Of a DNA stretch of 64,000 bases, positions 6,257 to 64,000 are shown piece by piece. How positions within the stretch are numbered: the first letter of the stretch is position 1; every line of letters begins with the position of its first letter. The position numbers and the translations under genes are program-made. The stretch covers positions 6,649 through 70,648 of the IMG/VR virus record IMGVR_UViG_3300014005_000001. One strand, given 5' to 3'. The notes under the pieces were generated by a model. It saw nothing but the letters and a program-made list of their open reading frames with translations. It did no database searches and was not told where the DNA came from. Origin of the DNA: a virus (lineage: Duplodnaviria > Caudoviricetes).

Positions 6257-6817
6257 TTAACCTGTAGTCTTTTGAAGGCTTGCAGGATCGAATTTTGTTA
6301 ACCAAGTCGTTTCGACTGTTCCCGTTAAATTGATACCTTCGTAATAAAGTTGTCCGTAAGCATCAGGTAAAGCTGTAATTTCTAGTTCAAATTCCGCTAA
6401 TTCTTCAGCACCGTTTTCCACACTCTTTACATATCCAGTAGCAGCAGTGCAGTTAGGGAATGCGATTAAACGTTTGTTACCTTCAAAAATATCAGCTTCT
6501 TCAGCCACGAACGAGAAATCTTTCCCGATGCTATCAATACCGTATGCGTAAACATCGGCTACTAAACCATCATTTGTAATACCGAAAATGTCACGTAATA
6601 CTTTTAATTGCATATGGCCACTAATTGTAACGGTTAATTGAGAAGGTTTGGATTTCTTCTTTTGAATAACACCACCACATAATTTCGAAATTGATTTAAT
6701 TTCTGTTTCTGCATCTAGCTTTCCAACACAACCGAATGGCTCGGAAACCGTTGCCCCTTTAAATAAAACACTTGCATTTTTAATCTCAACCGCATCAAAC
6801 ACATCAATTGTAGGCAT
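6257..6817 (-). CDS. Major tail protein
   Basis: 186 aa, beta-rich, acidic; synteny. Confidence 0.8.
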   Translation of the reverse strand: MPTIDVFDAVEIKNASVLFKGATVSEPFGCVGKLDAETEIKSISKLCGGVIQKKKSKPSQLTVTISGHMQLKVLRDIFGITNDGLVADVYAYGIDSIGKDFSFVAEEADIFEGNKRLIAFPNCTAATGYVKSVENGAEELAEFELEITALPDAYGQLYYEGINLTGTVETTWLTKFDPASLQKTTG

Positions 6818-15574: not shown

Positions 15575-15629
15575 AAATTGTCTCCCTTCATATGCACTTA
15601 TATTTTATCATCATTTATGTTAATAAATC

Positions 15630-15745
15630 GAGTTACCCATATCTTGTATTGTGTGTAACTGACCCCTTCGCCAAATCCCTTGCTATCATTGATTTCATTC
15701 TACTTTCTCTTTTGAGTTACACAGTACGAAATTTATGGGTAACTG
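15630..15745. repeat. Two 32-bp 12-8-12 inverted-arm sites in inverted orientation (15630-15661, 15714-15745)
   Basis: GAGTTACCCATA-TCTTGTAT-TGTGTGTAACTG and GAGTTACACAGT-ACGAAATT-TATGGGTAACTG. Confidence 0.7.
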
Positions 15746-15772
15746 TATAGATTTAAAAAGAAAAAGCAATGC

Positions 15773-16315
15773 TTAGATTTTAAACCTAGTCATTGCTTTA
15801 TCCATTGCATCTTGGTTTACCCCTATATAACGTAATGTGACCTTCTCTGACGAGTGATTGAATATCTCCATAAGTAATGCTATGTTTTTCGTTTGCATGT
15901 ACATATGATACCCGTACGTCTTTCTCAACGTATGTGTTCCTATTTCATCTAATCCAAACTCTGCCGCTGCTCCACTTAATATCTTATATGCCATACTACG
16001 ACCGATAGGACGATTCTTCCCTTGTCTACTTTGTAATAAATACTCATTATCTTCTCTTTCTTCAATAAACCATTTCAGTTCTCTTTTCAGTGCTGCAGTA
16101 ATTTGTATTCGTTTCTGTTTCCCGGTTTTCTTTTCTCTCATAGATATATGACTACCTTTAACATCTCCTACCTTCAATTTCAAAATGTCCGAGATTCTCA
16201 GGCCTGTATTGATTCCCATAATGAAGAGAATGTAATTACGTAAGCTCTTTTCCTTAAAATACTCTTTTAGCTGCTGTATTTCTTCTGGATCACGTATTGG
16301 CTGAACAAAATTCAT
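15773..16315 (-). CDS. Minimal tyrosine recombinase (catalytic domain only)
   Basis: GLRISD, HTLRKT, FNHSS and TLRY catalytic motifs; 180 aa. Confidence 0.9.
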   Translation of the reverse strand: MNFVQPIRDPEEIQQLKEYFKEKSLRNYILFIMGINTGLRISDILKLKVGDVKGSHISMREKKTGKQKRIQITAALKRELKWFIEEREDNEYLLQSRQGKNRPIGRSMAYKILSGAAAEFGLDEIGTHTLRKTYGYHMYMQTKNIALLMEIFNHSSEKVTLRYIGVNQDAMDKAMTRFKI

Positions 16316-17110: not shown

Positions 17111-17233
17111 TCACTTTAAAATACCAGCTTGTACAAAAATGTTTCTCCAAGCTTTATTGACTTGAAACTTCTCCACATCTTTTGCACGACGAGCAATTGC
17201 TTTTCTAATTTTTCTTTTCTTCAAAGCCTTCAT
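17111..17233 (-). CDS. Small basic protein, DUF3983-like (40 aa)
   Basis: Hand-translated MKALKKRKIRKAIARRAKDVEKFQVNKAWRNIFVQAGILK, with GAGG RBS. Confidence 0.6.
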   Translation of the reverse strand: MKALKKRKIRKAIARRAKDVEKFQVNKAWRNIFVQAGILK

Positions 17234-17241
17234 TCTACTAA

Positions 17242-17272
17242 CCTCACTTTCTATTAAAAGGATTATTTTGTT
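17242..17272. repeat. 31-bp direct repeat, copy 1 (copy 2 at 63250-63280)
   Basis: cctcactttctattaaaaggattattttgtt is identical at both loci. Confidence 0.9.
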
Positions 17273-17372
17273 CAGTTTCAAAACTCTTACACTATATTTT
17301 CGTTTTCTTATATGATTATTTTGCTATATAATTTAACTGTTATATATTCAAACCAATTAAGAGGTATTTACT

Positions 17373-17936
17373 ATGATTGAAACAGTTGTATTAGCAGGTT
17401 TTATATTTTTAATTATCTTTGTGCTAAAGTTGCCACGGTACATGCGTTTAAAGCGCGAAAATGAAGAAGCACTCATACGTAGAAAAAAAGAAAGAGAAAG
17501 AGCATATAAACTACATATGGAGGAACTTCGTCAGTCCGGTATTGATGAAATCGATCAAATGAATGGTCTACAATTTGAAGAGTACCTAAGCTCTTTATAC
17601 CAATCTCTTGGATACAATACAGAAGTTACAAAGGGATCTGGTGATTTTGGAGCCGATTTGATTTTAGAAAACAATGATGAAAAAATTATTGTCCAAGCAA
17701 AACGCTACAGTAGCAAAGTTAGTATCCAAGCGGTTCAAGAAATAGTTGCGGCAAAAGGTTTTTATAACGCTGAGCACGCTTGGGTTGTTACAAACAACTA
17801 TTTCACAACACCTGCCCGTAAATTAGCGGACGCTAATGATGTATTACTTATAGATCGGGACTTATTGATTAAATTAAGTGTGCAAGTAAATCAAGCGAAA
17901 GTATCAACTCGTGTTGAGAGATATAACTCCAATTGA
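17373..17936 (+). CDS. Mrr-like restriction endonuclease domain with N-terminal membrane helix
   Basis: GLQFEEYL, SGDFGADL, VQAKRY and VVTNNYFT motifs; hydrophobic N-terminus. Confidence 0.85.
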   Translation: MIETVVLAGFIFLIIFVLKLPRYMRLKRENEEALIRRKKERERAYKLHMEELRQSGIDEIDQMNGLQFEEYLSSLYQSLGYNTEVTKGSGDFGADLILENNDEKIIVQAKRYSSKVSIQAVQEIVAAKGFYNAEHAWVVTNNYFTTPARKLADANDVLLIDRDLLIKLSVQVNQAKVSTRVERYNSN

Positions 17937-17961
17937 GACACTCATGTTAGTGTCTTTTTTT
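17936..17961 (+). terminator. Intrinsic terminator of the Mrr-like gene
   Basis: agacact-catgtt-agtgtct followed by a T-run. Confidence 0.75.
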
Positions 17962-17964
17962 ATG

Positions 17965-18067
17965 ACAAAATGAAATTTTTATAATAAACCTTCAATCTTT
18001 GCTATCGCTTCAAATATCGGATAAATCTGTTGAGGCACAACCGCGTTTCCCAAGAATCTTAATCTAT
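17965..18067. repeat. Exact 103-bp direct repeat, copy 1 (copy 2 at 63898-64000)
   Basis: Base-by-base identical; offset 45933. Confidence 0.95.
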
Positions 18068-18734
18068 CTTCGTCCAATCTTGTGGCAGTCCCATCATCCA
18101 TTCCACAAATTGCGGGTTGATTTTCTTCCCAATATGTTCTGGAAAGTGTTCCCCGATTGATCCCGGTAGTGTTTTCCCGTGGCTGCCGTTTGCTTCTGAA
18201 GGGCACAACTCGCGGATCGGCTTGTAATTTTGACTTGTCGTTGGAGTGGCCAATAATAAATGTCCTGTATCTTTGATGTGGCGCCCCGACACTGACAGCC
18301 GGTAATACGAACGTCCTTGTCGAGTAGTTTTCTTCTTCCAAGTCGGAGAGCACGGTGTCCAAGCCCATTGTGACGTGTCCAGCAACATTTTCTCCAACAA
18401 ACCAAGTGGGTCCGAGTTCTCTAATGAGTCGGAAGACTTCTGGCCATAACCATCTTTCGTCTTCTGCACCTTTTCTCTTTCCTGCCATGCTTTCTCCCTG
18501 ACAGGGATATCCTGCTGAAATAACTCCAATTGAATCAACGTCAACACCTCCATCTATTAATGATTGTTTCGTAAGTTTATATAAATCCGGGAAAATAGGA
18601 ATGTTAGGATAGTTCTTTCTAAGTACTTTCTGATTGAACTCTTCTATCTCGCAAAAGGCTGCTGTTTCAATCCCAACCCAATCCGCTGCCATGCTTATTC
18701 CTGCAATTCCCGAACATAGATCTAACATTTTCAT
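17979..18734 (-). CDS. DNA cytosine-5 methyltransferase, alpha chain (no motif IX)
   Basis: Motifs I (LDLCSGIAG), IV (GYPCQ), VI (GENV), VIII (QRYR) and X (LGNAV). Confidence 0.92.
   Translation of the reverse strand: MKMLDLCSGIAGISMAADWVGIETAAFCEIEEFNQKVLRKNYPNIPIFPDLYKLTKQSLIDGGVDVDSIGVISAGYPCQGESMAGKRKGAEDERWLWPEVFRLIRELGPTWFVGENVAGHVTMGLDTVLSDLEEENYSTRTFVLPAVSVGAPHQRYRTFIIGHSNDKSKLQADPRVVPFRSKRQPRENTTGINRGTLSRTYWEENQPAICGMDDGTATRLDEDRLRFLGNAVVPQQIYPIFEAIAKIEGLL
18059..18538 (-). CDS. Nested alternative-frame gene: putative methyltransferase beta chain carrying motif IX
   Basis: GGAGGTG RBS 6 nt before TTG (MIQLELF...); C-terminus KKINPQFVEWMMGLPQDWT resembles motif IX; part of track ORF 18059-18553. 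Confidence 0.7.
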   Translation of the reverse strand: MIQLELFQQDIPVREKAWQEREKVQKTKDGYGQKSSDSLENSDPLGLLEKMLLDTSQWAWTPCSPTWKKKTTRQGRSYYRLSVSGRHIKDTGHLLLATPTTSQNYKPIRELCPSEANGSHGKTLPGSIGEHFPEHIGKKINPQFVEWMMGLPQDWTKID

Positions 18735-18764
18735 ACCCTATTCCCCTTTGTTTTAAAATAGCTT

Positions 18765-18884
18765 TTAGTTTTTATCGTTACATTTCTCGCATTTAAACTT
18801 CTTATTTCTATTTTCATAATTTGCCTTTACAGTTATTTCTTTTTTACAATCACTACATAGTGTTAGAACCTTATTAAATCCCAT
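18765..18884 (-). CDS. 39-aa CxxC/CxxC zinc-ribbon microprotein
   Basis: Hand-translated MGFNKVLTLCSDCKKEITVKANYENRNKKFKCEKCNDKN; RBS; fills one cassette. Confidence 0.6.
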   Translation of the reverse strand: MGFNKVLTLCSDCKKEITVKANYENRNKKFKCEKCNDKN

Positions 18885-18921
18885 AATCAACTTCCCCTTT
18901 CTAACAAAATAGCGTTTTTGT

Positions 18922-19068
18922 TTAGTTTCCAGTTATCTTATCGTACAATCTGAGAGCAAATCCTATAGGAAGCAATACGAACGTACACATAGCCATCCCT
19001 AATAGGAAATACCAGATGTTCTCATAGTTTTCTCTTTGGTAAAAATCACGTACTTTTAGATTGACCAA
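18922..19068 (-). CDS. 48-aa membrane microprotein
   Basis: Hand-translated from TTG after GGAGGGGG: MVNLKVRDFYQRENYENIWYFLLGMAMCTFVLLPIGFALRLYDKITGN. Confidence 0.6.
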   Translation of the reverse strand: MVNLKVRDFYQRENYENIWYFLLGMAMCTFVLLPIGFALRLYDKITGN

Positions 19069-19111
19069 TGTTCCCCCTCCTTTCTCCAAAATAACGATTT
19101 TGTTCAGTTGT

Positions 19112-19510
19112 TTATTTAGTATTCGTACCTTCTACGCCTCGTTTTTCCCTACCCACAGTTCGTTTGCTAAGCCACAGTAATGCCTCTTCTAGCTTAGTGA
19201 TTGCCATTGAGTTCTCTCTACAACGGAAACCTGTTTGGTTGAAATGTTCAAGGCGACAAATAACCATAGCGATAAGATCCTCATTCGTTACACCGTTAAT
19301 ACCAGCTTCTTGGATTGGCCCTTCTTGAAAATTAATCTCTCCAACCTTTAAAGGTAATGGATTATCGTTCTCGACGTTATTAGGATTGTACATAACGATT
19401 CCAGTGTTAGCATAAACTTCAAAGTGATGTGGGGCATTGTTTGTAAACTCCTCTTCATGAAATACCTCTGTATACTTACTCGTTAACAAATCATGTTCTA
19501 GTCTTTTCAT
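19112..19510 (-). CDS. tad1: Tad1-family anti-Thoeris signal sponge
   Basis: INFQEGP...GVTNEDLIAMVICRL...FRCRENSMAITKLEEALLWL..R...R..RGVEGTN matches the Tad1 signature as recalled. Confidence 0.82.
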   Translation of the reverse strand: MKRLEHDLLTSKYTEVFHEEEFTNNAPHHFEVYANTGIVMYNPNNVENDNPLPLKVGEINFQEGPIQEAGINGVTNEDLIAMVICRLEHFNQTGFRCRENSMAITKLEEALLWLSKRTVGREKRGVEGTNTK

Positions 19511-19549
19511 TTTTCATTTCTCCTTTTTCTATTCAAATAAGAATTTTGT

Positions 19550-19858
19550 TTAGTCTTGCACTAGGTCTTTCAAATCAATAGGCTCAACCATTAATTCACG
19601 CTGTTTATCCGCTGTACTTGTTCCACCCCAAAACATTTCGCCACTTCCTACAATAAATGCTTCAATTGCTCCGCCTGATCTGTACTCTGATTTAAAACCA
19701 ACAGTTTCTCCGAATCTAAATAGCTTGCCTGGTTCTAAATCTGCTAACTTAACTTTCAACCCTCTCTCTCCGTTTCTAACAAGAATCTTTTCAAAACACT
19801 CTTTGCATATGCCGTTATGATTACCGTATTCCCTGCATTGGCTGCATTTTAATCCCAT
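19550..19858 (-). CDS. Hypothetical protein with N-terminal CxxC...CxxC
   Basis: 102 aa; GGAGG RBS; fills one cassette. Confidence 0.65.
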   Translation of the reverse strand: MGLKCSQCREYGNHNGICKECFEKILVRNGERGLKVKLADLEPGKLFRFGETVGFKSEYRSGGAIEAFIVGSGEMFWGGTSTADKQRELMVEPIDLKDLVQD

Positions 19859-20028
19859 TCTTTTTACCTCCTACCAAATAACTATTTTATTAATATCCTT
19901 ATTTCTCGATTTTAAGATCCGTGTTAAAATAACCTCATATCATTCTTTTTACTTTCACTTTAAAGATGATACTTCAATCTTGGCCCTAGTCTTCTAGGGC
20001 TTTTTTTATTTCAAATAAGGATTTTGTC

Positions 20029-20610
20029 TTAATATCCGTTATCCTGACGTTCAAAGTTTTCTTTATTTTTTTCTTTATACGCACGTACAATATCCTCATA
20101 TGTATATCCGTACAAGTAGCAAAGTCTGAAGAAAATACCGAAAGCCTTATGTAAATGTGTTAGAGTTACGTTTAAATCTCTATACTGGCACCACGCACGT
20201 TTAGCAGTTAAAATGTCCTGCATATACCATTCAAACAGCATGTTCACGTTTAATACATTTTTCTTCATAATGTATTGCTCGCGAAACATTGCTACAATTC
20301 TACGCTTTAAGGTATAACGATCTAGTTCAATTACAATGTTCATAAGAAAATGGAATCCATCAACTAATTCCACTAATAATCCATCTTTAGGAGTCCCAAA
20401 CCCTACACTCCACATTTTGAACGCTCTCGTTTCATTCCACGCCTCGCCAATCTCAACTAACAACGCACGGAACAACATGTCTAATTTGTCATTACCTTTA
20501 TAACCAATACGTCTATCAAGTTCCTTTTGCATTTCTATTAATTCACTAATATCAAATGTTTGGTTCGTTTCTTCTTTAGTAATAATATGCAAGTTAGTTA
20601 CATGTATCAT
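20029..20610 (-). CDS. dut: Dimeric (all-alpha) dUTPase
   Basis: ALLVEIGEAWNETRAFKMW, ELVDGFHF and KNKENFERQDNGY. Confidence 0.85.
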   Translation of the reverse strand: MIHVTNLHIITKEETNQTFDISELIEMQKELDRRIGYKGNDKLDMLFRALLVEIGEAWNETRAFKMWSVGFGTPKDGLLVELVDGFHFLMNIVIELDRYTLKRRIVAMFREQYIMKKNVLNVNMLFEWYMQDILTAKRAWCQYRDLNVTLTHLHKAFGIFFRLCYLYGYTYEDIVRAYKEKNKENFERQDNGY

Positions 20611-24344: not shown

Positions 24345-25019
24345 TTAAACTAATCTTGGTCGCCATGCTTTAATGTAAGAAATAGCTTCATCAAAGTCTT
24401 TCTGACGAATATTACGATAACTGTTTACCGCAAATGAATTTTTCACATCTTTCCAAGCTGCTGAAAATAACTTACTTTTGCTATCATGTACTTCGGGATT
24501 AAATGTCCCTTCATCCCAGAGCTTACACACCCTACGATTAACAGCATTTCTAATTGCTAATTGTTGACTATAATCAACTGTCATACGTTCTTGTACTGTT
24601 TGCTCTAGTTTGCCTAATCGATCTCCATGACTCATCATTTCTGTTGTCATGATATTGATCATTTGTAATGGATGCATTTTTTGTTTAATTTGTTGTTCCA
24701 TACGGTTAAATTCATATATGTAACTTTCTTTCATTTGAGCTGCTCTTTCACCCGTATATCCCATAACCAGAAACATTAATCCATCTCGTTTAAGCAGATA
24801 CTTAGGTCTTACCTTCTGTTGAGCATCCTTATATTCGGCCAACGAAAAATTTCGTTCGCTAAATTCTGTGCTACAGTTTAAGGATTCAATACTTTTCAGT
24901 ACATCTGCATGACGTTTATTGAAAACATCTGCAACTGTTAAACTGTCAGTCACTAAATCATTTCCTTCTATGAATACCAAATGACTCACTGGATGCTGTA
25001 TTGCTTGAAGTCGACTCAT
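24345..25019 (-). CDS. Rha-family regulator/antirepressor with ORF6C-like C-terminus
   Basis: TDSLTVADVFNKRHADVLKSI, LVMGYTG and VNSYRNIRQKDFDEAISYIKAW. Confidence 0.88.
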   Translation of the reverse strand: MSRLQAIQHPVSHLVFIEGNDLVTDSLTVADVFNKRHADVLKSIESLNCSTEFSERNFSLAEYKDAQQKVRPKYLLKRDGLMFLVMGYTGERAAQMKESYIYEFNRMEQQIKQKMHPLQMINIMTTEMMSHGDRLGKLEQTVQERMTVDYSQQLAIRNAVNRRVCKLWDEGTFNPEVHDSKSKLFSAAWKDVKNSFAVNSYRNIRQKDFDEAISYIKAWRPRLV

Positions 25020-25032
25020 TCCAAACCCTCCT

Positions 25033-25492
25033 GAGTTTATTTTTCGTAAACTTTTTTATTAATTATTTCTTTTTATATAAGTTTGCATTTTGCAAACTTT
25101 TTGTTTAAAAAAATAAACCGATTAATTTCGATTTTATGTCATGGTGCATTAATTATCTGATTTCAAAAAATCACTTATTGGAGTATCTAGAACTTCTGAC
25201 ATGGCAATCAAAGCCTTTCTTCCTGGTTGGCTTTTTCCACTTAAATATAAAGAAACAGTAGAAGGGTCCCGTTCTATAGCAGATGCTAGGTCAATTTGTT
25301 TCATTTTCCTCTTTCTAAGCAAAGTTGACACTTTCTCGCTGTCAAATTTCATTTTAATTTCACCTCGCTTGTGCTTTACACTTTGAATTCTATCAAAAAG
25401 TTTGTAAAATGTAAACTTTTTATTATTTTTTTTACTTTTACGTCATTTAAATCTAGTTCTAACTATTACAAAAGTTTGATTCTATCAAACTT
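25033..25492. promoter_or_regulatory. Four candidate repressor operators AAGTTTG-N7-CAAACTT
   Basis: Sites at 25033-25053, 25079-25099, 25398-25418 and 25472-25492, flanking cro. Confidence 0.7.
25149..25352 (-). CDS. Cro-like XRE HTH protein
   Basis: 67-aa HTH divergent from cI. Confidence 0.85.
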   Translation of the reverse strand: MKFDSEKVSTLLRKRKMKQIDLASAIERDPSTVSLYLSGKSQPGRKALIAMSEVLDTPISDFLKSDN

Positions 25493-25571
25493 TTGTAATA
25501 GAATGTACTTAATTGCATATTAACTAAATTGACTATAACTGAAATGATTATATATAAAGGGTGAATAATTT

Positions 25572-25910
25572 ATGCGTGGAGATAGGGTAAAACAATTGAG
25601 GAAATCCAAAGGTTGGACACAGGGTGAACTTGGGGAAGCTGTAGGTTTAAAAAAAGCTACAATTTCATTAATAGAAAACAATAAACGAGATCGAAGTGAG
25701 AGATCCGTTTCTGTATTTGCAGAAGTTTTAGGGTGTACATCTGATTATTTACTAGGATTTTCAGACGATCCACAATTAAATAGTGAACAACATTCCAGAT
25801 TGAAACAAGAATTTGATGAAATTTATGAGATGCTGCAAAAAATGCCAGAAGCAGAACAAGAGATGTATTTGAAATGGATAAAAGCTGGTTTAAATACAGA
25901 AAGTAAGTAA
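25572..25910 (+). CDS. CI-like XRE repressor
   Basis: RVKQLRKSKGWTQGELGEAVGLKKATISLIENN...LGCTSDYLLG. Confidence 0.88.
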   Translation: MRGDRVKQLRKSKGWTQGELGEAVGLKKATISLIENNKRDRSERSVSVFAEVLGCTSDYLLGFSDDPQLNSEQHSRLKQEFDEIYEMLQKMPEAEQEMYLKWIKAGLNTESK

Positions 25911-25946
25911 ATGATTGTTAGCATGAGCGCTAACAATCATTTTTTT
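25911..25946 (+). terminator. cI terminator (U-tract on the + strand only)
   Basis: atgattgttagc-atgagc-gctaacaatcat followed by a T-run. Confidence 0.8.
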
Positions 25947-26089
25947 CGTTTTTCAAGCGATTCTTTAATATCATTAACATGATTCCTAGCCTTTTCATCT
26001 GTTTCCCCTTTTTTTAATAATTCCCATAGATTAGTAGCTAGATCATTTTTTTCTGTTGTATTTTCTTCATGTACTAATGCTAAACTCAT
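25937..26089 (-). CDS. aimX-position small ORF (50 aa), convergent with cI
   Basis: Hand-translated MSLALVHEENTTEKNDLATNLWELLKKGETDEKARNHVNDIKESLEKRKK; purine-rich RBS. Confidence 0.55.
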   Translation of the reverse strand: MSLALVHEENTTEKNDLATNLWELLKKGETDEKARNHVNDIKESLEKRKK

Positions 26090-26197
26090 TATTTATTCCC
26101 CCTACATCCTTTTTATTTTATATGCACCGTTTAGAATGGAAAGTTTTTATCGCTTTTTATCTGGAATCATCAAAAAAGTTTCCACTCTTTATAAAGC

Positions 26198-26233
26198 AGA
26201 AATGACACTATCAAATATGATAGTGTCATTTCT
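26198..26233. terminator. Perfect 16-bp hairpin downstream of aimP
   Basis: agaaatgacactatca-aata-tgatagtgtcatttct. Confidence 0.75.
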
Positions 26234-26253
26234 AATATTATTATTTATAAAAA

Positions 26254-26394
26254 TCAACCGCCGCCCGGATTCGGGTCCATATACATTACTGGCGCGTCTA
26301 CATGCTTAATTTTATCTTGTTTTGTAGCTGGTGCAAATGTAAAAGTAGCAGCTGCCGCAATTGTCAAAATAACTTTAAATAACTTGGACTTCAA
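26254..26394 (-). CDS. aimP: Arbitrium pro-peptide (46 aa)
   Basis: Not in the track; TTG start after GAGGCGGTG; MKSKLFKVILTIAAAATFTFAPATKQDKIKHVDAPVMYMDPNPGGG is a signal peptide plus a PGGG-ending tail. Confidence 0.82.
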   Translation of the reverse strand: MKSKLFKVILTIAAAATFTFAPATKQDKIKHVDAPVMYMDPNPGGG

Positions 26395-26413
26395 ACATTT
26401 CACCGCCTCTTAC

Positions 26414-27598
26414 TTATATAATTTGATTATAACATTTTAATGCATTAATAGGTAGAGAAATATAGAAGAAATCACCTGTTTTAGAAAAACTTTCTACGGA
26501 CTGTTCAAAATATTCCTTATCACCTGTTGCCAGTCCCATATAATACAGTTGAAAGGCACTAAGTGAACCATTCTGCTTCTCTAGTCCTCTAAGTATTTCT
26601 AAAGCTTCTTCCTTTTTACCGATTTTTATATAAAAAAACGCTAACTCTGCTAAATCAAGTTTGGTACGATCAATTGAATCCAAGTCTTTCCCATGATGTA
26701 TTTTTAAGAATAGTAAAACATTTAATATTTTATTTTTTCTTATTTTAAACTTTTTATTAACTGGAACACCTATAAGTTCAAGTGCTTTGCAGATATAGTT
26801 TTTCGCCGTTTCATAATCACTTAGCGCATAACTTTCTCCTAATTTACAATAAGCAATTGCTTTAGTACTTATATAATAGTTAAAAGGGTCATTTAAAATT
26901 TCAAAACAAATTTCTCTCGCCTTAAACAAATCTCCGTTATTATGCAAATGAATAGGTACTTGCATTTCTTTTACACGCAAGAGAAATGAATTTCGATTTG
27001 TTTGTTTTGAAACTTTCTCAATCCTAGGTAATACACTTTCAATATATTCATTAACCTTTTGGTAATTACTAAAATCTAAATAGGAATACATCATACTAAA
27101 ATCCGAAACAATCATTAAGTCATCATCAGTATTTTTTTGGAATTCTCTTTTCTGTTGAACTTCATTAAAAAAGTCCCTTGCAATAATAGTTCCTTCGCTT
27201 CTCTTTCTAAGAAGCTGATAATATTCAGCGATTTTCACATTAGTACGTACAGTTGGCGAATCGCCTTTTTTTGTTTGTGATTTCATTATTTGTTCAATTA
27301 CTAATTCTTGAAGTTCATATTCCCCAAACATATCTAAAACTTCTAGCGCTAGTTTTAAATTTTTATGAGATAGTCTTGGTATATACTCTTTAATGCAATT
27401 CCTTCTAAACTCTACATCTTTAGGTTTATATAGTCTAAGAGCGTCAACTAAGTGCATAAAATCAAATTTATCTTGTTTTTTAAAATAACTATTTACTGTT
27501 GTATGCGTTACTTTAAATCTTGTTGCTAATTTTCGATTCGTATACCCATTTGATTTTAAAGTTTCTTGCATGTCACTCAAATCTAATAAAGTTCGCAC
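26414..27598 (-). CDS. aimR: AimR-family arbitrium peptide receptor
   Basis: About 394 aa from a GTG after AAGGAGG; N-terminal HTH, TPR-like helices; followed by a secreted peptide gene. Confidence 0.85.
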   Translation of the reverse strand: MRTLLDLSDMQETLKSNGYTNRKLATRFKVTHTTVNSYFKKQDKFDFMHLVDALRLYKPKDVEFRRNCIKEYIPRLSHKNLKLALEVLDMFGEYELQELVIEQIMKSQTKKGDSPTVRTNVKIAEYYQLLRKRSEGTIIARDFFNEVQQKREFQKNTDDDLMIVSDFSMMYSYLDFSNYQKVNEYIESVLPRIEKVSKQTNRNSFLLRVKEMQVPIHLHNNGDLFKAREICFEILNDPFNYYISTKAIAYCKLGESYALSDYETAKNYICKALELIGVPVNKKFKIRKNKILNVLLFLKIHHGKDLDSIDRTKLDLAELAFFYIKIGKKEEALEILRGLEKQNGSLSAFQLYYMGLATGDKEYFEQSVESFSKTGDFFYISLPINALKCYNQII

Positions 27599-27699
27599 AA
27601 TCTTTGTCCTCCTTGTGGACAAAAAGACACGTAACCCCATTTTATTACATATAAAGGAAAACGCGCCACTTTCAATCTAAGATGTGTTATAATAATTAT

Positions 27700-27786
27700 G
27701 TACAAGATCCGCGACAATGTTCCCTACCTGGATTAGGGGGCAGTGTAAGAGTGCGTCCAACACTACTTACACCGTGGGTCTTTTTC
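27700..27786 (+). ncRNA. Candidate ~85-nt structured RNA antisense to the aimR upstream region
   Basis: Extended -10 TGTTATAAT (27685-27693); closing stem 27706-27713/27773-27780 around two hairpins; U6 tail. Confidence 0.45.
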
Positions 27787-28128
27787 ACGTCCGTTTATTT
27801 TATTTCTTTTCATAATAACACAAATTTCCCAAAATTCGGTCATGGAGTAGTCTGAAAGCTATTGAGAAAGTTGTAAAACCGCTGTACAGCAACGTTTTTT
27901 ATGTTACACGTAACCTCATATGCAATTCTGCATACGCTTTGCGGGATTACCCGCATGCATATTTTACCACAAAACCGAACTTTTGTTCTAACTAATTTTA
28001 TAATGATTCAAAAATAATCATTAGTATTTATAGATGTTTCTAAATTAATCGTTTTATCCAAATATATACCATTCACTTCTCTCGTTCGCTTATAATTGTC
28101 ACAGATTAAAAAGGGCGGTGAATAGTCA

Positions 28129-34372: not shown

Positions 34373-34430
34373 GATAAGCCGCCCATAGGACGGCTCTTAC
34401 TTTTGTTCATAAAACTATTCTTTTGTTATA

Positions 34431-36821: not shown

Positions 36822-36891
36822 ATTTCTTTTTCTCTAGTCTTACAAAAGCCGTATTTTGTACAAAATAAAAAAAGACCAGCTATTGCTGCTC

Positions 36892-62711: not shown

Positions 62712-63242
62712 TTAACTAATACTTGGCCATTCTAATTTTTCAACATTCAATAAGTAATCAACTGGAGCGCGGTTTGTTTGCTCTACTACATATGCACGTT
62801 CCTCGAATTCTTTTCTTGGAATAGATTTACGGCCACCATCATATAGCATGGCTTCATAATATTCTGCTACTAATGAAATCGGAACAAAATAAATGATATG
62901 ATCTGTCCTAAATTCAATTAAGAAGAAACATATTGCTCCATGTTCTAAAGTGTCCTTTAAATAATCGATTTGATGTCTGCTTATTTTATCTAATGGAAAA
63001 TTAGTAGTTTCTTTTGTAGACTTGGCTTCAAAATATACTGCTCTCCCCTTGTATACGCCATCGTAATCCACTGTAGATTTACTACTCCATGCGCTTTTGA
63101 GGATATTGCCTTTCTTATCCGTTTTTATAACTTTTATCGGTGTAGGACGTTTATTAAACACTCCTACATTCGCTGCCTTATAAACCCGACACGTATTGTT
63201 TAATAATAATTCAAACGCCATTCCTCTATTTGCGTAGCCCAT
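62712..63242 (-). CDS. recU: RecU Holliday junction resolvase
   Basis: NRGMAFE, KRPTP, STVDYDGV, FEAKST and HQIDYL. Confidence 0.92.
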   Translation of the reverse strand: MGYANRGMAFELLLNNTCRVYKAANVGVFNKRPTPIKVIKTDKKGNILKSAWSSKSTVDYDGVYKGRAVYFEAKSTKETTNFPLDKISRHQIDYLKDTLEHGAICFFLIEFRTDHIIYFVPISLVAEYYEAMLYDGGRKSIPRKEFEERAYVVEQTNRAPVDYLLNVEKLEWPSIS

Positions 63243-63249
63243 GTTGCTT

Positions 63250-63280
63250 CCTCACTTTCTATTAAAAGGATTATTTTGTT
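63250..63280. repeat. 31-bp direct repeat, copy 2 (contains a 16-bp cassette motif at 63263-63278)
   Basis: Identical to 17242-17272. Confidence 0.9.
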
Positions 63281-63552
63281 GAGTTTCTTTTGTATGGGAC
63301 CGTAACCGTAGCACTAAACGAACTGTCAGGGCTACCCCAATCTATCCCTATTACCGTTTGTTTATGCTGTTCAATACCGGAAACAAAACCATCTACAAGT
63401 GCTTGTCCTAATTCTCTGCCTTCTCTCGCTGTCATTGGATAAATCGGTGTCCCATCATCAAGAAGCATGATTGGTTTTCTATTTTTGCTATATTTACGTT
63501 CTTTATTATTTCTCCCAATTGTAAGGCGAAATATATCTTTTACTTTCCACAT
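63271..63552 (-). CDS. Hypothetical protein
   Basis: Track ORF; stop codon lies inside the 16-bp motif. Confidence 0.55.
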   Translation of the reverse strand: MWKVKDIFRLTIGRNNKERKYSKNRKPIMLLDDGTPIYPMTAREGRELGQALVDGFVSGIEQHKQTVIGIDWGSPDSSFSATVTVPYKRNSTK

Positions 63553-63897: not shown

Positions 63898-64000
63898 ACA
63901 AAATGAAATTTTTATAATAAACCTTCAATCTTTGCTATCGCTTCAAATATCGGATAAATCTGTTGAGGCACAACCGCGTTTCCCAAGAATCTTAATCTAT
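63898..64000 (-). repeat. Second copy of the methyltransferase 3' end (gene continues past the right edge)
   Basis: Identical to 17965-18067; encodes RLRFLGNAVVPQQIYPIFEAIAKIEGLL-stop. Confidence 0.95.

Follow-up and report, generated by a model that had tools for sequence, protein, structure and literature searches.

Why should the same short sequence stand between unrelated genes of a phage accessory region, and could it explain how such genes are replaced one at a time? The question is raised by a 64-kb stretch of DNA, hereafter the window (positions 6,649 to 70,648 of the IMG/VR record IMGVR_UViG_3300014005_000001), which is part of a 70.6-kb virus contig and holds two Bacillus cereus-group prophage gene sets, both on the minus strand. 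These are prophage A (about 1.8 to 27.6 kb of the window) and prophage B (about 33.4 kb to the contig end). In prophage A, the genes between a dimeric dUTPase gene (20029-20610) and a DUF3983 gene are separated by a repeated element, which an earlier note on this DNA described as a 16-bp palindrome delimiting an integron-like array of single-gene cassettes. The array is a real and widespread feature. Its sites form a series of oriented linkers whose centres differ from slot to slot and follow the same order in different phages, and the genes between them turn over. No description of the array was found in the papers searched on these phages and on anti-defence loci.

Oriented linkers in a fixed order

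The element is present on the coding (minus) strand at all eight junctions listed in the earlier note. Its description as a palindrome is accurate for one copy: the strict form CAAAAT-N4-ATTTTG is exact only at 19087, where the arms are perfect, and with up to two mismatches it occurs at 29 sites compared with 15.5 ± 3.7 expected, merely an approximately 2-fold enrichment. The conserved unit is instead an asymmetric 17-mer, A-Y-AAAA-NNN-TTATTT-K-R. In an alignment of 68 distinct sites from ten arrays, A1, A3-A6 and T10-T15 (with A12) are invariant or nearly so, position 2 is C or T, and positions 7-9 vary. The closing C2/G17 pair is found in only 37% of these sites and the conserved T10/T11 lack symmetric partners, which makes the unit oriented rather than dyad-symmetric. 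A 17-nt matrix trained on 61 sites from eight other phages, with the window left out and a threshold of 13 bits, finds 12 matches in the window, compared with 0.7 ± 0.8 in 200 Markov simulations. Seven same-strand matches fall inside 2.8 kb, where the simulated maximum is two. The motif thus withstands the comparison with simulated controls. Two further copies proposed at 63263 and 63899 are real matrix matches in prophage B. Another, at 34410, fails, and the one at 36843 proves to be a different 7-6-7 palindrome, TACAAAA-N6-TTTTGTA, with its best score on the other strand. This sequence (36843-36858, TACAAAA-TACGGC-TTTTGTA) lies just past a terminator and ahead of a 69-aa open reading frame (ORF) in the tail/lysis region of prophage B; it stands outside the junction family and could be a candidate operator.

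On the coding strand, a typical junction reads aaACT(A/G)A-ACAAAAT-NNN-TTATTT(T)G-NN-AGAAAGGAGG-N7-10-ATG. As the earlier note had observed, the stop codon of the upstream ORF adjoins or falls within the element, and TAA or TGA occupies -3..-1 in 33 sites. A purine-rich extended Shine-Dalgarno (SD) sequence is found at +21..+29. Where a forward gene follows, its start codon lies 31-39 nt from motif base 1, with the SD between. At about one third of the sites, the element is followed by an A-run and a GC hairpin without a ribosome-binding site (RBS). Here the hairpin is the terminator of an inverted cassette that has its own promoter, as in the Mrr-like nuclease of the window and the collagen-like genes of phBC6A52.

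Eight other phages were examined: phBC6A52, MY192, BMBtp3, phi4J1, LY4, IEBH, 0105phi7-2 and Bacillus anthracis phage J5a. According to their record taxonomy, six belong to five genera of the International Committee on Taxonomy of Viruses, with no genus assigned to phBC6A52 and 0105phi7-2. In each of the eight, a cluster of 3-10 same-oriented sites occupies the equivalent genomic position, with the dUTPase gene at the start and RecU, another resolvase or a late activator after the end. Across ten arrays, every one of the 70 sites lies in gene orientation, and three whole genomes contain almost no sites outside the array. The 38-nt junction of the last slot is also present at 63250-63287, and 33 Bacillus phage records contain it between other genes; it is 97-100% conserved between unrelated gene pairs. 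Arrays are found in prophages of several species as well. A pan-prokaryote pattern scan located three or more same-strand sites only in loci with B. cereus-group titles or in untitled loci with the same junction variants, and the remaining loci had 0-2 same-strand sites each. The pattern used was loose and returned mostly single chance matches; the use of the scan was confined to a negative control on clustering and the supply of independent B. cereus-group loci.

The central bases of the element fall into about ten variants, which follow one another in the order AGCGTT, ATAGTT, ATTCTT, ATC(C/T)TT, ATCGTT, AACGCT, AACTTC, AATTTC, ATAATC. Across phages, agreement in slot order reaches a mean Kendall tau of 0.89 over 32 array pairs. 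The order was also checked in 11 additional chromosomal prophage loci that had no part in defining it, and 10 of them are strictly monotonic; a Bacillus pfraonensis locus, for instance, has the slot series 0,1,2,6,8,9. The sole non-monotonic case, a Bacillus nitratireducens locus (L074), reads 5,6,8 and then 0,1,6,8,9, and resembles a partial array with a second array behind it, produced by duplication or by two prophages lying side by side. Within one phage, 2% of spacer pairs are identical, and an identical counterpart in another phage is found in 60% of comparisons. Around these spacers the cargo is hypervariable: in 97 of 150 matched junction pairs, the 100-nt flanks show no detectable homology on either side, a common spacer without flank homology is found in 182 cross-phage pairs, and the proteins downstream of any one slot are mostly singletons. 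The last slot, for example, is followed by DUF3983, RecU, a T7-endonuclease-I-like protein (by annotation of the 0105phi7-2 record) or a 57-59-aa protein.

Several phages also hold a conserved non-coding block of ~140 nt in the interval between the ATCGTT and AACGCT junctions (L001 14830-14965, L002 11125-11265 and also L006). The block contains a GAAACCCCG...CGGGG hairpin and yielded neither an ORF nor an Rfam family. Candidate identities are a small RNA and a cassette remnant.

Proposed cassette exchange and its alternatives

Where two arrays share homology over at least 120 nt, it starts at -1/0 of a motif and stops at +14/+15; the limits thus fall at or within the 17-mer. The end of a high-scoring segment pair lies within a 20-nt interval at 46% of motif sites, compared with 21% of 245 non-motif gene ends (2.2-fold). 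Relative to the overall density, ends are enriched 11-fold at motif sites; at gene ends without the motif, the enrichment is about 5-fold. Individual cassettes follow the same pattern. One of 436 nt is 100% identical between MY192 and LY4 with limits at -1 and +14, whereas identity in its neighbours is 88-91%. Between offsets -1 and +15 of its motifs, the Tad1 cassette (19088-19550) matches that of MY192 at 95.5% identity, and it stands behind different spacers in the window and in MY192. A 2.7-kb homology with BMBtp3 stops at +6 of the first motif. Prophages A and B have a methyltransferase 3′ end in common and diverge right past the motif: the copy at 17966 precedes the inverted Mrr cassette, whereas that at 63899 precedes a 79-aa ORF. 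Shared segments therefore end in the motif, and the proposal that it delimits single-gene units independently of the genes on either side is upheld. The related idea of a recombination or micro-homology handle for gene swapping survives in part, in that the motif coincides with the ends of shared segments; the integron-like enzyme system attached to it does not.

We lean towards an explanation, drawn from sequence comparison, in which the linkers form a colinear series used by homology-driven cassette exchange and so serve as a natural gene-swapping scaffold. The motif would be the core of a standard intercistronic linker of ~40 nt, composed of a stop codon, A-Y-AAAA-NNN-TTATTT, 3-4 nt, an extended SD (AGAAAGGAGG type) and a start codon. 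Such linkers, 8-10 in number, all point the same way and occupy the accessory part of the early operon in temperate siphophages of the B. cereus group, from the dUTPase gene to the RecU or late-activator genes. Their arms are the same in all slots, their central 3-6 bases are slot-specific and keep one order among the phages examined, and the genes between them are freely replaced. Exchange is envisaged as homology- or microhomology-driven recombination or template switching between the linkers of co-resident phages or prophages, with the linkers acting as homology patches of about 17-40 nt and probably with no dedicated site-specific recombinase taking part. The linker would provide an incoming ORF with its stop/SD context, and an inverted cassette would arrive with a promoter and terminator of its own. 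If crossovers occur in the arms and the centres stay with the scaffold, the expected pattern is one of common arms and slot-specific centres. On this last point the counts are only suggestive: the spacer is common to 10 of 13 pairs with homologous upstream cargo and to 6 of 14 with homologous downstream cargo, too few informative cases for the link between spacer and cargo to place the crossover.

Several observations weigh against this explanation. Homology of ~17-40 nt is short for RecA, and a PHROG search of the replication-side genes of prophage A recognised no annealing protein. The compared arrays are not independent lineages. Alignments by BLAST run on through every copy of the motif and hence cannot fix where within it a crossover lies. 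Junctions that lack the motif often hold mosaic break ends as well (the 21% given above); the motif is thus not required for mosaicism at gene boundaries, which it sharpens but does not create. Furthermore, same-slot homology alone leaves unexplained why both arms are invariant across slots and why copies without a downstream gene persist intact, as five do in phBC6A52. The invariance of the arms may reflect gene-level selection for cassettes with common arms or an extra binding function of the arms. Together, invariant arms and persistent gene-less copies make an additional sequence-specific function a serious rival or complement.

Such a function might make the motif an oriented regulatory site, with the accessory operon controlled junction by junction and recombination as a by-product, an account we consider possible though rather unlikely. 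A phage or host protein may bind the DNA in a stoperator-like manner and block elongation in lysogens. Alternatively, the site may act in the mRNA, as a RegA-type translational operator or a processing site. Both arms are invariant around a variable spacer, all sites are co-directional with transcription, the distance to the SD is fixed and copies without a downstream gene remain conserved, all of which speak for regulation, as do the precedents of stoperators, SAS/ESAS and SPBRE/MrpR. However, in contrast to stoperators and SPBRE, copies are absent from around the immunity/arbitrium region and early promoter of prophage A, no regulator gene is common to all array-bearing loci examined, and the site has no dyad symmetry. 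The variant that acts through RNA meets the further difficulty that no structure is predicted: the folds of eight junctions are no better than those of shuffles and have no structure in common, C2 and G17 do not covary, and Rfam gives no match in the window, phBC6A52 or MY192. A hairpin of RNA or single-stranded DNA was rejected on the folds and the lack of covariation. Nor would regulation alone explain ordered, slot-specific spacers. A sigma-A promoter in the junction was likewise discarded, as none was found and no -35 partner accompanies TATTTT; transcription of the array seems to start at an early promoter near 25415. To our knowledge, none of the CodY, ComK, LexA, Fur/PerR, cre, Rex and NrdR boxes fits the motif.

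A further account, which we hold to be improbable, treats the linkers as the inherited scaffold of one ancestral operon, conserved for translation, with illegitimate recombination occurring anywhere and selection retaining only the events at gene boundaries. The linker's downstream half, an extended SD, is complementary to the 16S 3′ end, unstructured junction RNA favours initiation, and break ends are enriched at non-motif gene boundaries too. Nevertheless, break ends have fixed offsets in the motif and are 2.2-fold commoner there than at junctions without it, the 38-nt junction is nearly identical between unrelated gene pairs, and the leader is used by no other gene of the ~100-gene window. 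Illegitimate events would also erode the linkers, yet the 182 cross-phage pairs have kept a common spacer without flank homology.

The remaining alternative is a site-specific system of the integron type, in which the palindrome would be the place where a 180-aa tyrosine recombinase or the host Xer excises and inserts cassette circles. The array does resemble integrons in its promoterless, co-oriented single-gene cassettes, each bordered by a repeated, partly palindromic site, and the recombinase (15773-16315), which consists of a catalytic domain only, retains the catalytic R, K, HxxR, H and Y as judged by eye. This reading is nonetheless already largely refuted, and we give it very little credence. 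No IntI-type recombinase adjoins the array; the 180-aa enzyme is encoded 1 kb away, its homologue is missing from four of five complete array-bearing phage genomes, and LY4, IEBH and 0105phi7-2 carry no PF00589 or PF00239 recombinase, that is, neither a tyrosine nor a serine type. Directly downstream of the recombinase gene lies an inverted pair of ~30-nt lox-like sites (15622-15660 and 15715-15753) of the type AGTTACCCATA...TGTGTAACT, which are probably its own inversion or resolution substrate. With these sites beside its gene, the small recombinase probably has a substrate separate from the array motif, and it was rejected as the array enzyme. Integrons further possess a structured, foldable attC of 57-141 nt, whereas the unit here is 17 nt long and the junctions have fold z-scores of -0.9 to +0.7. 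Cassette order in integrons records the history of insertion at attI, whereas a fixed order of junction variants across phages is the opposite of such dynamics. A 4-nt centre is also too short for the overlap region of a tyrosine recombinase. Neither the integron analogy nor the nearby recombinase as its enzyme is therefore supported. The same small recombinase adjoins ArpU in phBC6A52 and MY192.

Returning to colinear linkers, a stronger form of that explanation is offered here tentatively and is itself unlikely. The array may be a dedicated, addressable exchange platform, in which the arms (stop-AYAAAA and TTATTT-SD) would be crossover zones travelling with the genes and the centres would be addresses. 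The centres would keep exchanges colinear and suppress deletions within the array. Such a platform might be upheld by gene-level selection on anti-defence cargo, possibly stimulated by a putative motif-binding or motif-nicking factor. If true, it would be a clean natural example of the linkers that Botstein postulated in 1978-80, as well as a recombinase-free phage counterpart of recombinase-mediated cassette exchange. The linkers offer a sequence-defined handle on the trade, one gene at a time, in accessory and anti-defence genes (such as Tad1, orphan methyltransferases and nucleases) among temperate phages of the B. cereus group, including those of B. anthracis and Bacillus thuringiensis. 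As an ordered series, they allow the choice between linkers and random recombination plus selection, in the origin of phage mosaicism, to be tested directly within a single system. The genes found in any one slot make up a catalogue of small alternatives, and the linkers could thus serve as anchors for mining thousands of prophages for new anti-defence and defence genes.

A separate observation concerns a 239-aa protein of MY192 and LY4 (L002 11635-12354, L005 5052-5771), which occupies an array slot behind different spacers and carries an HNH endonuclease annotation in LY4. Breaks that drive cassette conversion could come from a free-standing homing-type nuclease within the array.

Junctions and cargo of the window

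The gene identities proposed earlier are confirmed for dUTPase_2, Tad1, the C5 methyltransferase, the Mrr_cat nuclease of the inverted cassette and DUF3983, and the junctions that separate them are listed in Table 1. Tad1 matches PDB 8kbb with an E value of 7e-33, the methyltransferase is assigned to Pfam PF00145, and the 102-aa Cys-rich ORF belongs to no Pfam or PHROG family. By PADLOC, the Mrr_cat nuclease resembles the nuclease end of ZorD as well as type IV restriction models. It has a hydrophobic N-terminal segment and is an inverted moron, with its own promoter and terminator, that adjoins the orphan C5 methyltransferase. The segment between junctions 1 and 2 is 80% identical to a cassette tail in phBC6A52, next to an inverted collagen-like gene, and looks like the scar of a deleted inverted cassette. 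Beyond the DUF3983 gene lie an ArpU-like late activator and then the small tyrosine recombinase.

Table 1. Array features of prophage A and matching junctions of prophage B, in window coordinates.
Feature	Position (strand)	Motif base 1	Sequence	Score (bits)	Context
Junction 1	20011..20027 (-)	20027	ACAAAATCCTTATTTGA	22.9	right after the dUTPase stop; followed by A-run and hairpin, not RBS
Apparent non-coding scar	19891..20010 (+)				gene-less; terminator 19982-20010 (terminator scan) and apparent tail of a lost inverted cassette
Junction 2	19874..19890 (-)	19890	ATAAAATAGTTATTTGG + SD	20.4	ahead of 102-aa Cys-rich ORF 19550-19858
Junction 3	19533..19549 (-)	19549	ACAAAATTCTTATTTGA + SD	20.6	ahead of Tad1 (19112-19510)
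Junction 4	19087..19103 (-)	19103	ACAAAATCGTTATTTTG + AGAAAGGAGG	24.0	sole perfect palindrome; ahead of ORF 18922-19089
Membrane peptide, 48-55 aa	ORF 18922-19089				follows junction 4
Junction 5	18905..18921 (-)	18921	ACAAAAACGCTATTTTG + SD	20.9	ahead of 41-aa zinc-ribbon ORF 18765-18890
Degenerate copy	18754..18770 (-)		AACTAAAAGCTATTTTA + SD	below matrix threshold	ahead of C5 DNA methyltransferase 17979-18734
Junction 7	17966..17982 (-)	17982	ATAAAAATTTCATTTTG	15.5	overlaps methyltransferase stop; starts the 103-nt repeat
Inverted cassette	17282..17965 (+)				promoter region, Mrr_cat gene 17373-17936, terminator 17935-17962 (Pfam, PADLOC, promoter/terminator scan)
Last junction	17255..17271 (-)	17271	ACAAAATAATCCTTTTA + ATAGAAAGTGAGG	16.9	ahead of DUF3983 (17111-17233)
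Last-slot junction, prophage B	63263..63279 (-)	63279			ahead of RecU (62712-63242)
AATTTC-slot junction, prophage B	63899..63915 (-)	63915			past the same methyltransferase 3′ end; then SD and 79-aa ORF

An exact repeat of 103 nt (17965-18067 = 63898-64000) begins at a motif copy, as had been claimed, and is cut off by the contig end. The contig thus ends inside a methyltransferase gene identical to that at 17965-18067. Probably the assembly broke at, or was joined through, this repeat common to the two phages, and the tandem layout of the two gene sets is therefore not to be trusted as such.

Comparison with known systems

Repeated intergenic elements are found in several phage groups. In T4-type phages, promoter-early stem-loop (PeSL) cassettes consist of sigma-70 promoters and terminator stem-loops. 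As their abstracts describe them, these short repeats flank non-essential ORFan genes in hyperplastic regions, differences between relatives map to the repeats, and recombination between repeats shuffles single genes, all of which is reminiscent of the array; slot-specific spacers in a conserved order are not mentioned in those abstracts (PMC2839356, PMC4122927). Between related phages of the B. cereus group, indel and replacement breakpoints likewise fall at the repeats. The array differs in being an intercistronic stop/SD linker within one operon, with neither promoter nor stem-loop: no minus-strand promoter-like site occurs at the junctions, the nearest good one being at 25415, and the hairpins that follow some copies belong to inverted cassettes.

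Linker or boundary sequences are also said to have been described by Susskind and Botstein in 1978 and by Clark et al. in 2001 (HK620), in connection with modular theory and the lambdoid nin and early regions. They are reportedly short conserved sequences at gene boundaries, between interchangeable modules from the replication genes to the late activator, that keep exchanges colinear. Those reports concern, as far as is known, scattered, unrelated boundary sequences, whereas the array is a regular series of 8-10 copies with a common core and one gene for each linker. In behaviour, the array appears closest to PeSL cassettes and to these Botstein-type linkers.

Its anatomy appears closest to the SAS/ESAS repeats of Cluster K mycobacteriophages (GGGATAGGAGCCC), whose function is unknown (PMC3203893). 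These repeats are asymmetric, lie in a single orientation and only in the non-structural half of the genome, and stand just upstream of the starts of different gene families, sometimes including the upstream stop (PMC3203893). The array, too, keeps one orientation among non-structural genes with varied downstream families. However, SAS is the SD region itself, 3-7 nt before the start, whereas the 17-mer lies upstream of the SD and ends ~15-20 nt before the start. The two sequences are unrelated, and neither a recombination role nor a conserved slot order is reported for SAS (PMC3203893).

Stoperators of Cluster A mycobacteriophages are asymmetric sites of 13-17 nt in short intergenic gaps, co-oriented and often overlapping stops (PMC9283540, PMC6550527), and the array sites are likewise asymmetric, co-oriented and intergenic. 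Stoperators are spread genome-wide and match the operator of the early promoter (PMC9283540, PMC6550527), whereas the array sites lie within 3-4 kb, stay confined to the array in three whole genomes and include none in the immunity region, with no matrix match in 25000-27800. The SPBRE boxes of SPbeta occur in about 10 promoter regions and are bound by MrpR/YopR, a catalytically dead repressor (PMC10516654). They resemble the array as AT-rich intergenic repeats in the accessory arm of a Bacillus phage with a protein of tyrosine-recombinase fold nearby (PMC10516654). In contrast, the array sites appear to be intra-operonic, and the neighbouring recombinase, which seems by eye to keep its catalytic residues, is absent from most array phages. 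The array thus departs from the PeSL, SAS/ESAS, stoperator, SPBRE and integron families in the features that define them, and what is new in it, and the main result here, is a set of ordered, slot-specific linkers around hypervariable cargo.

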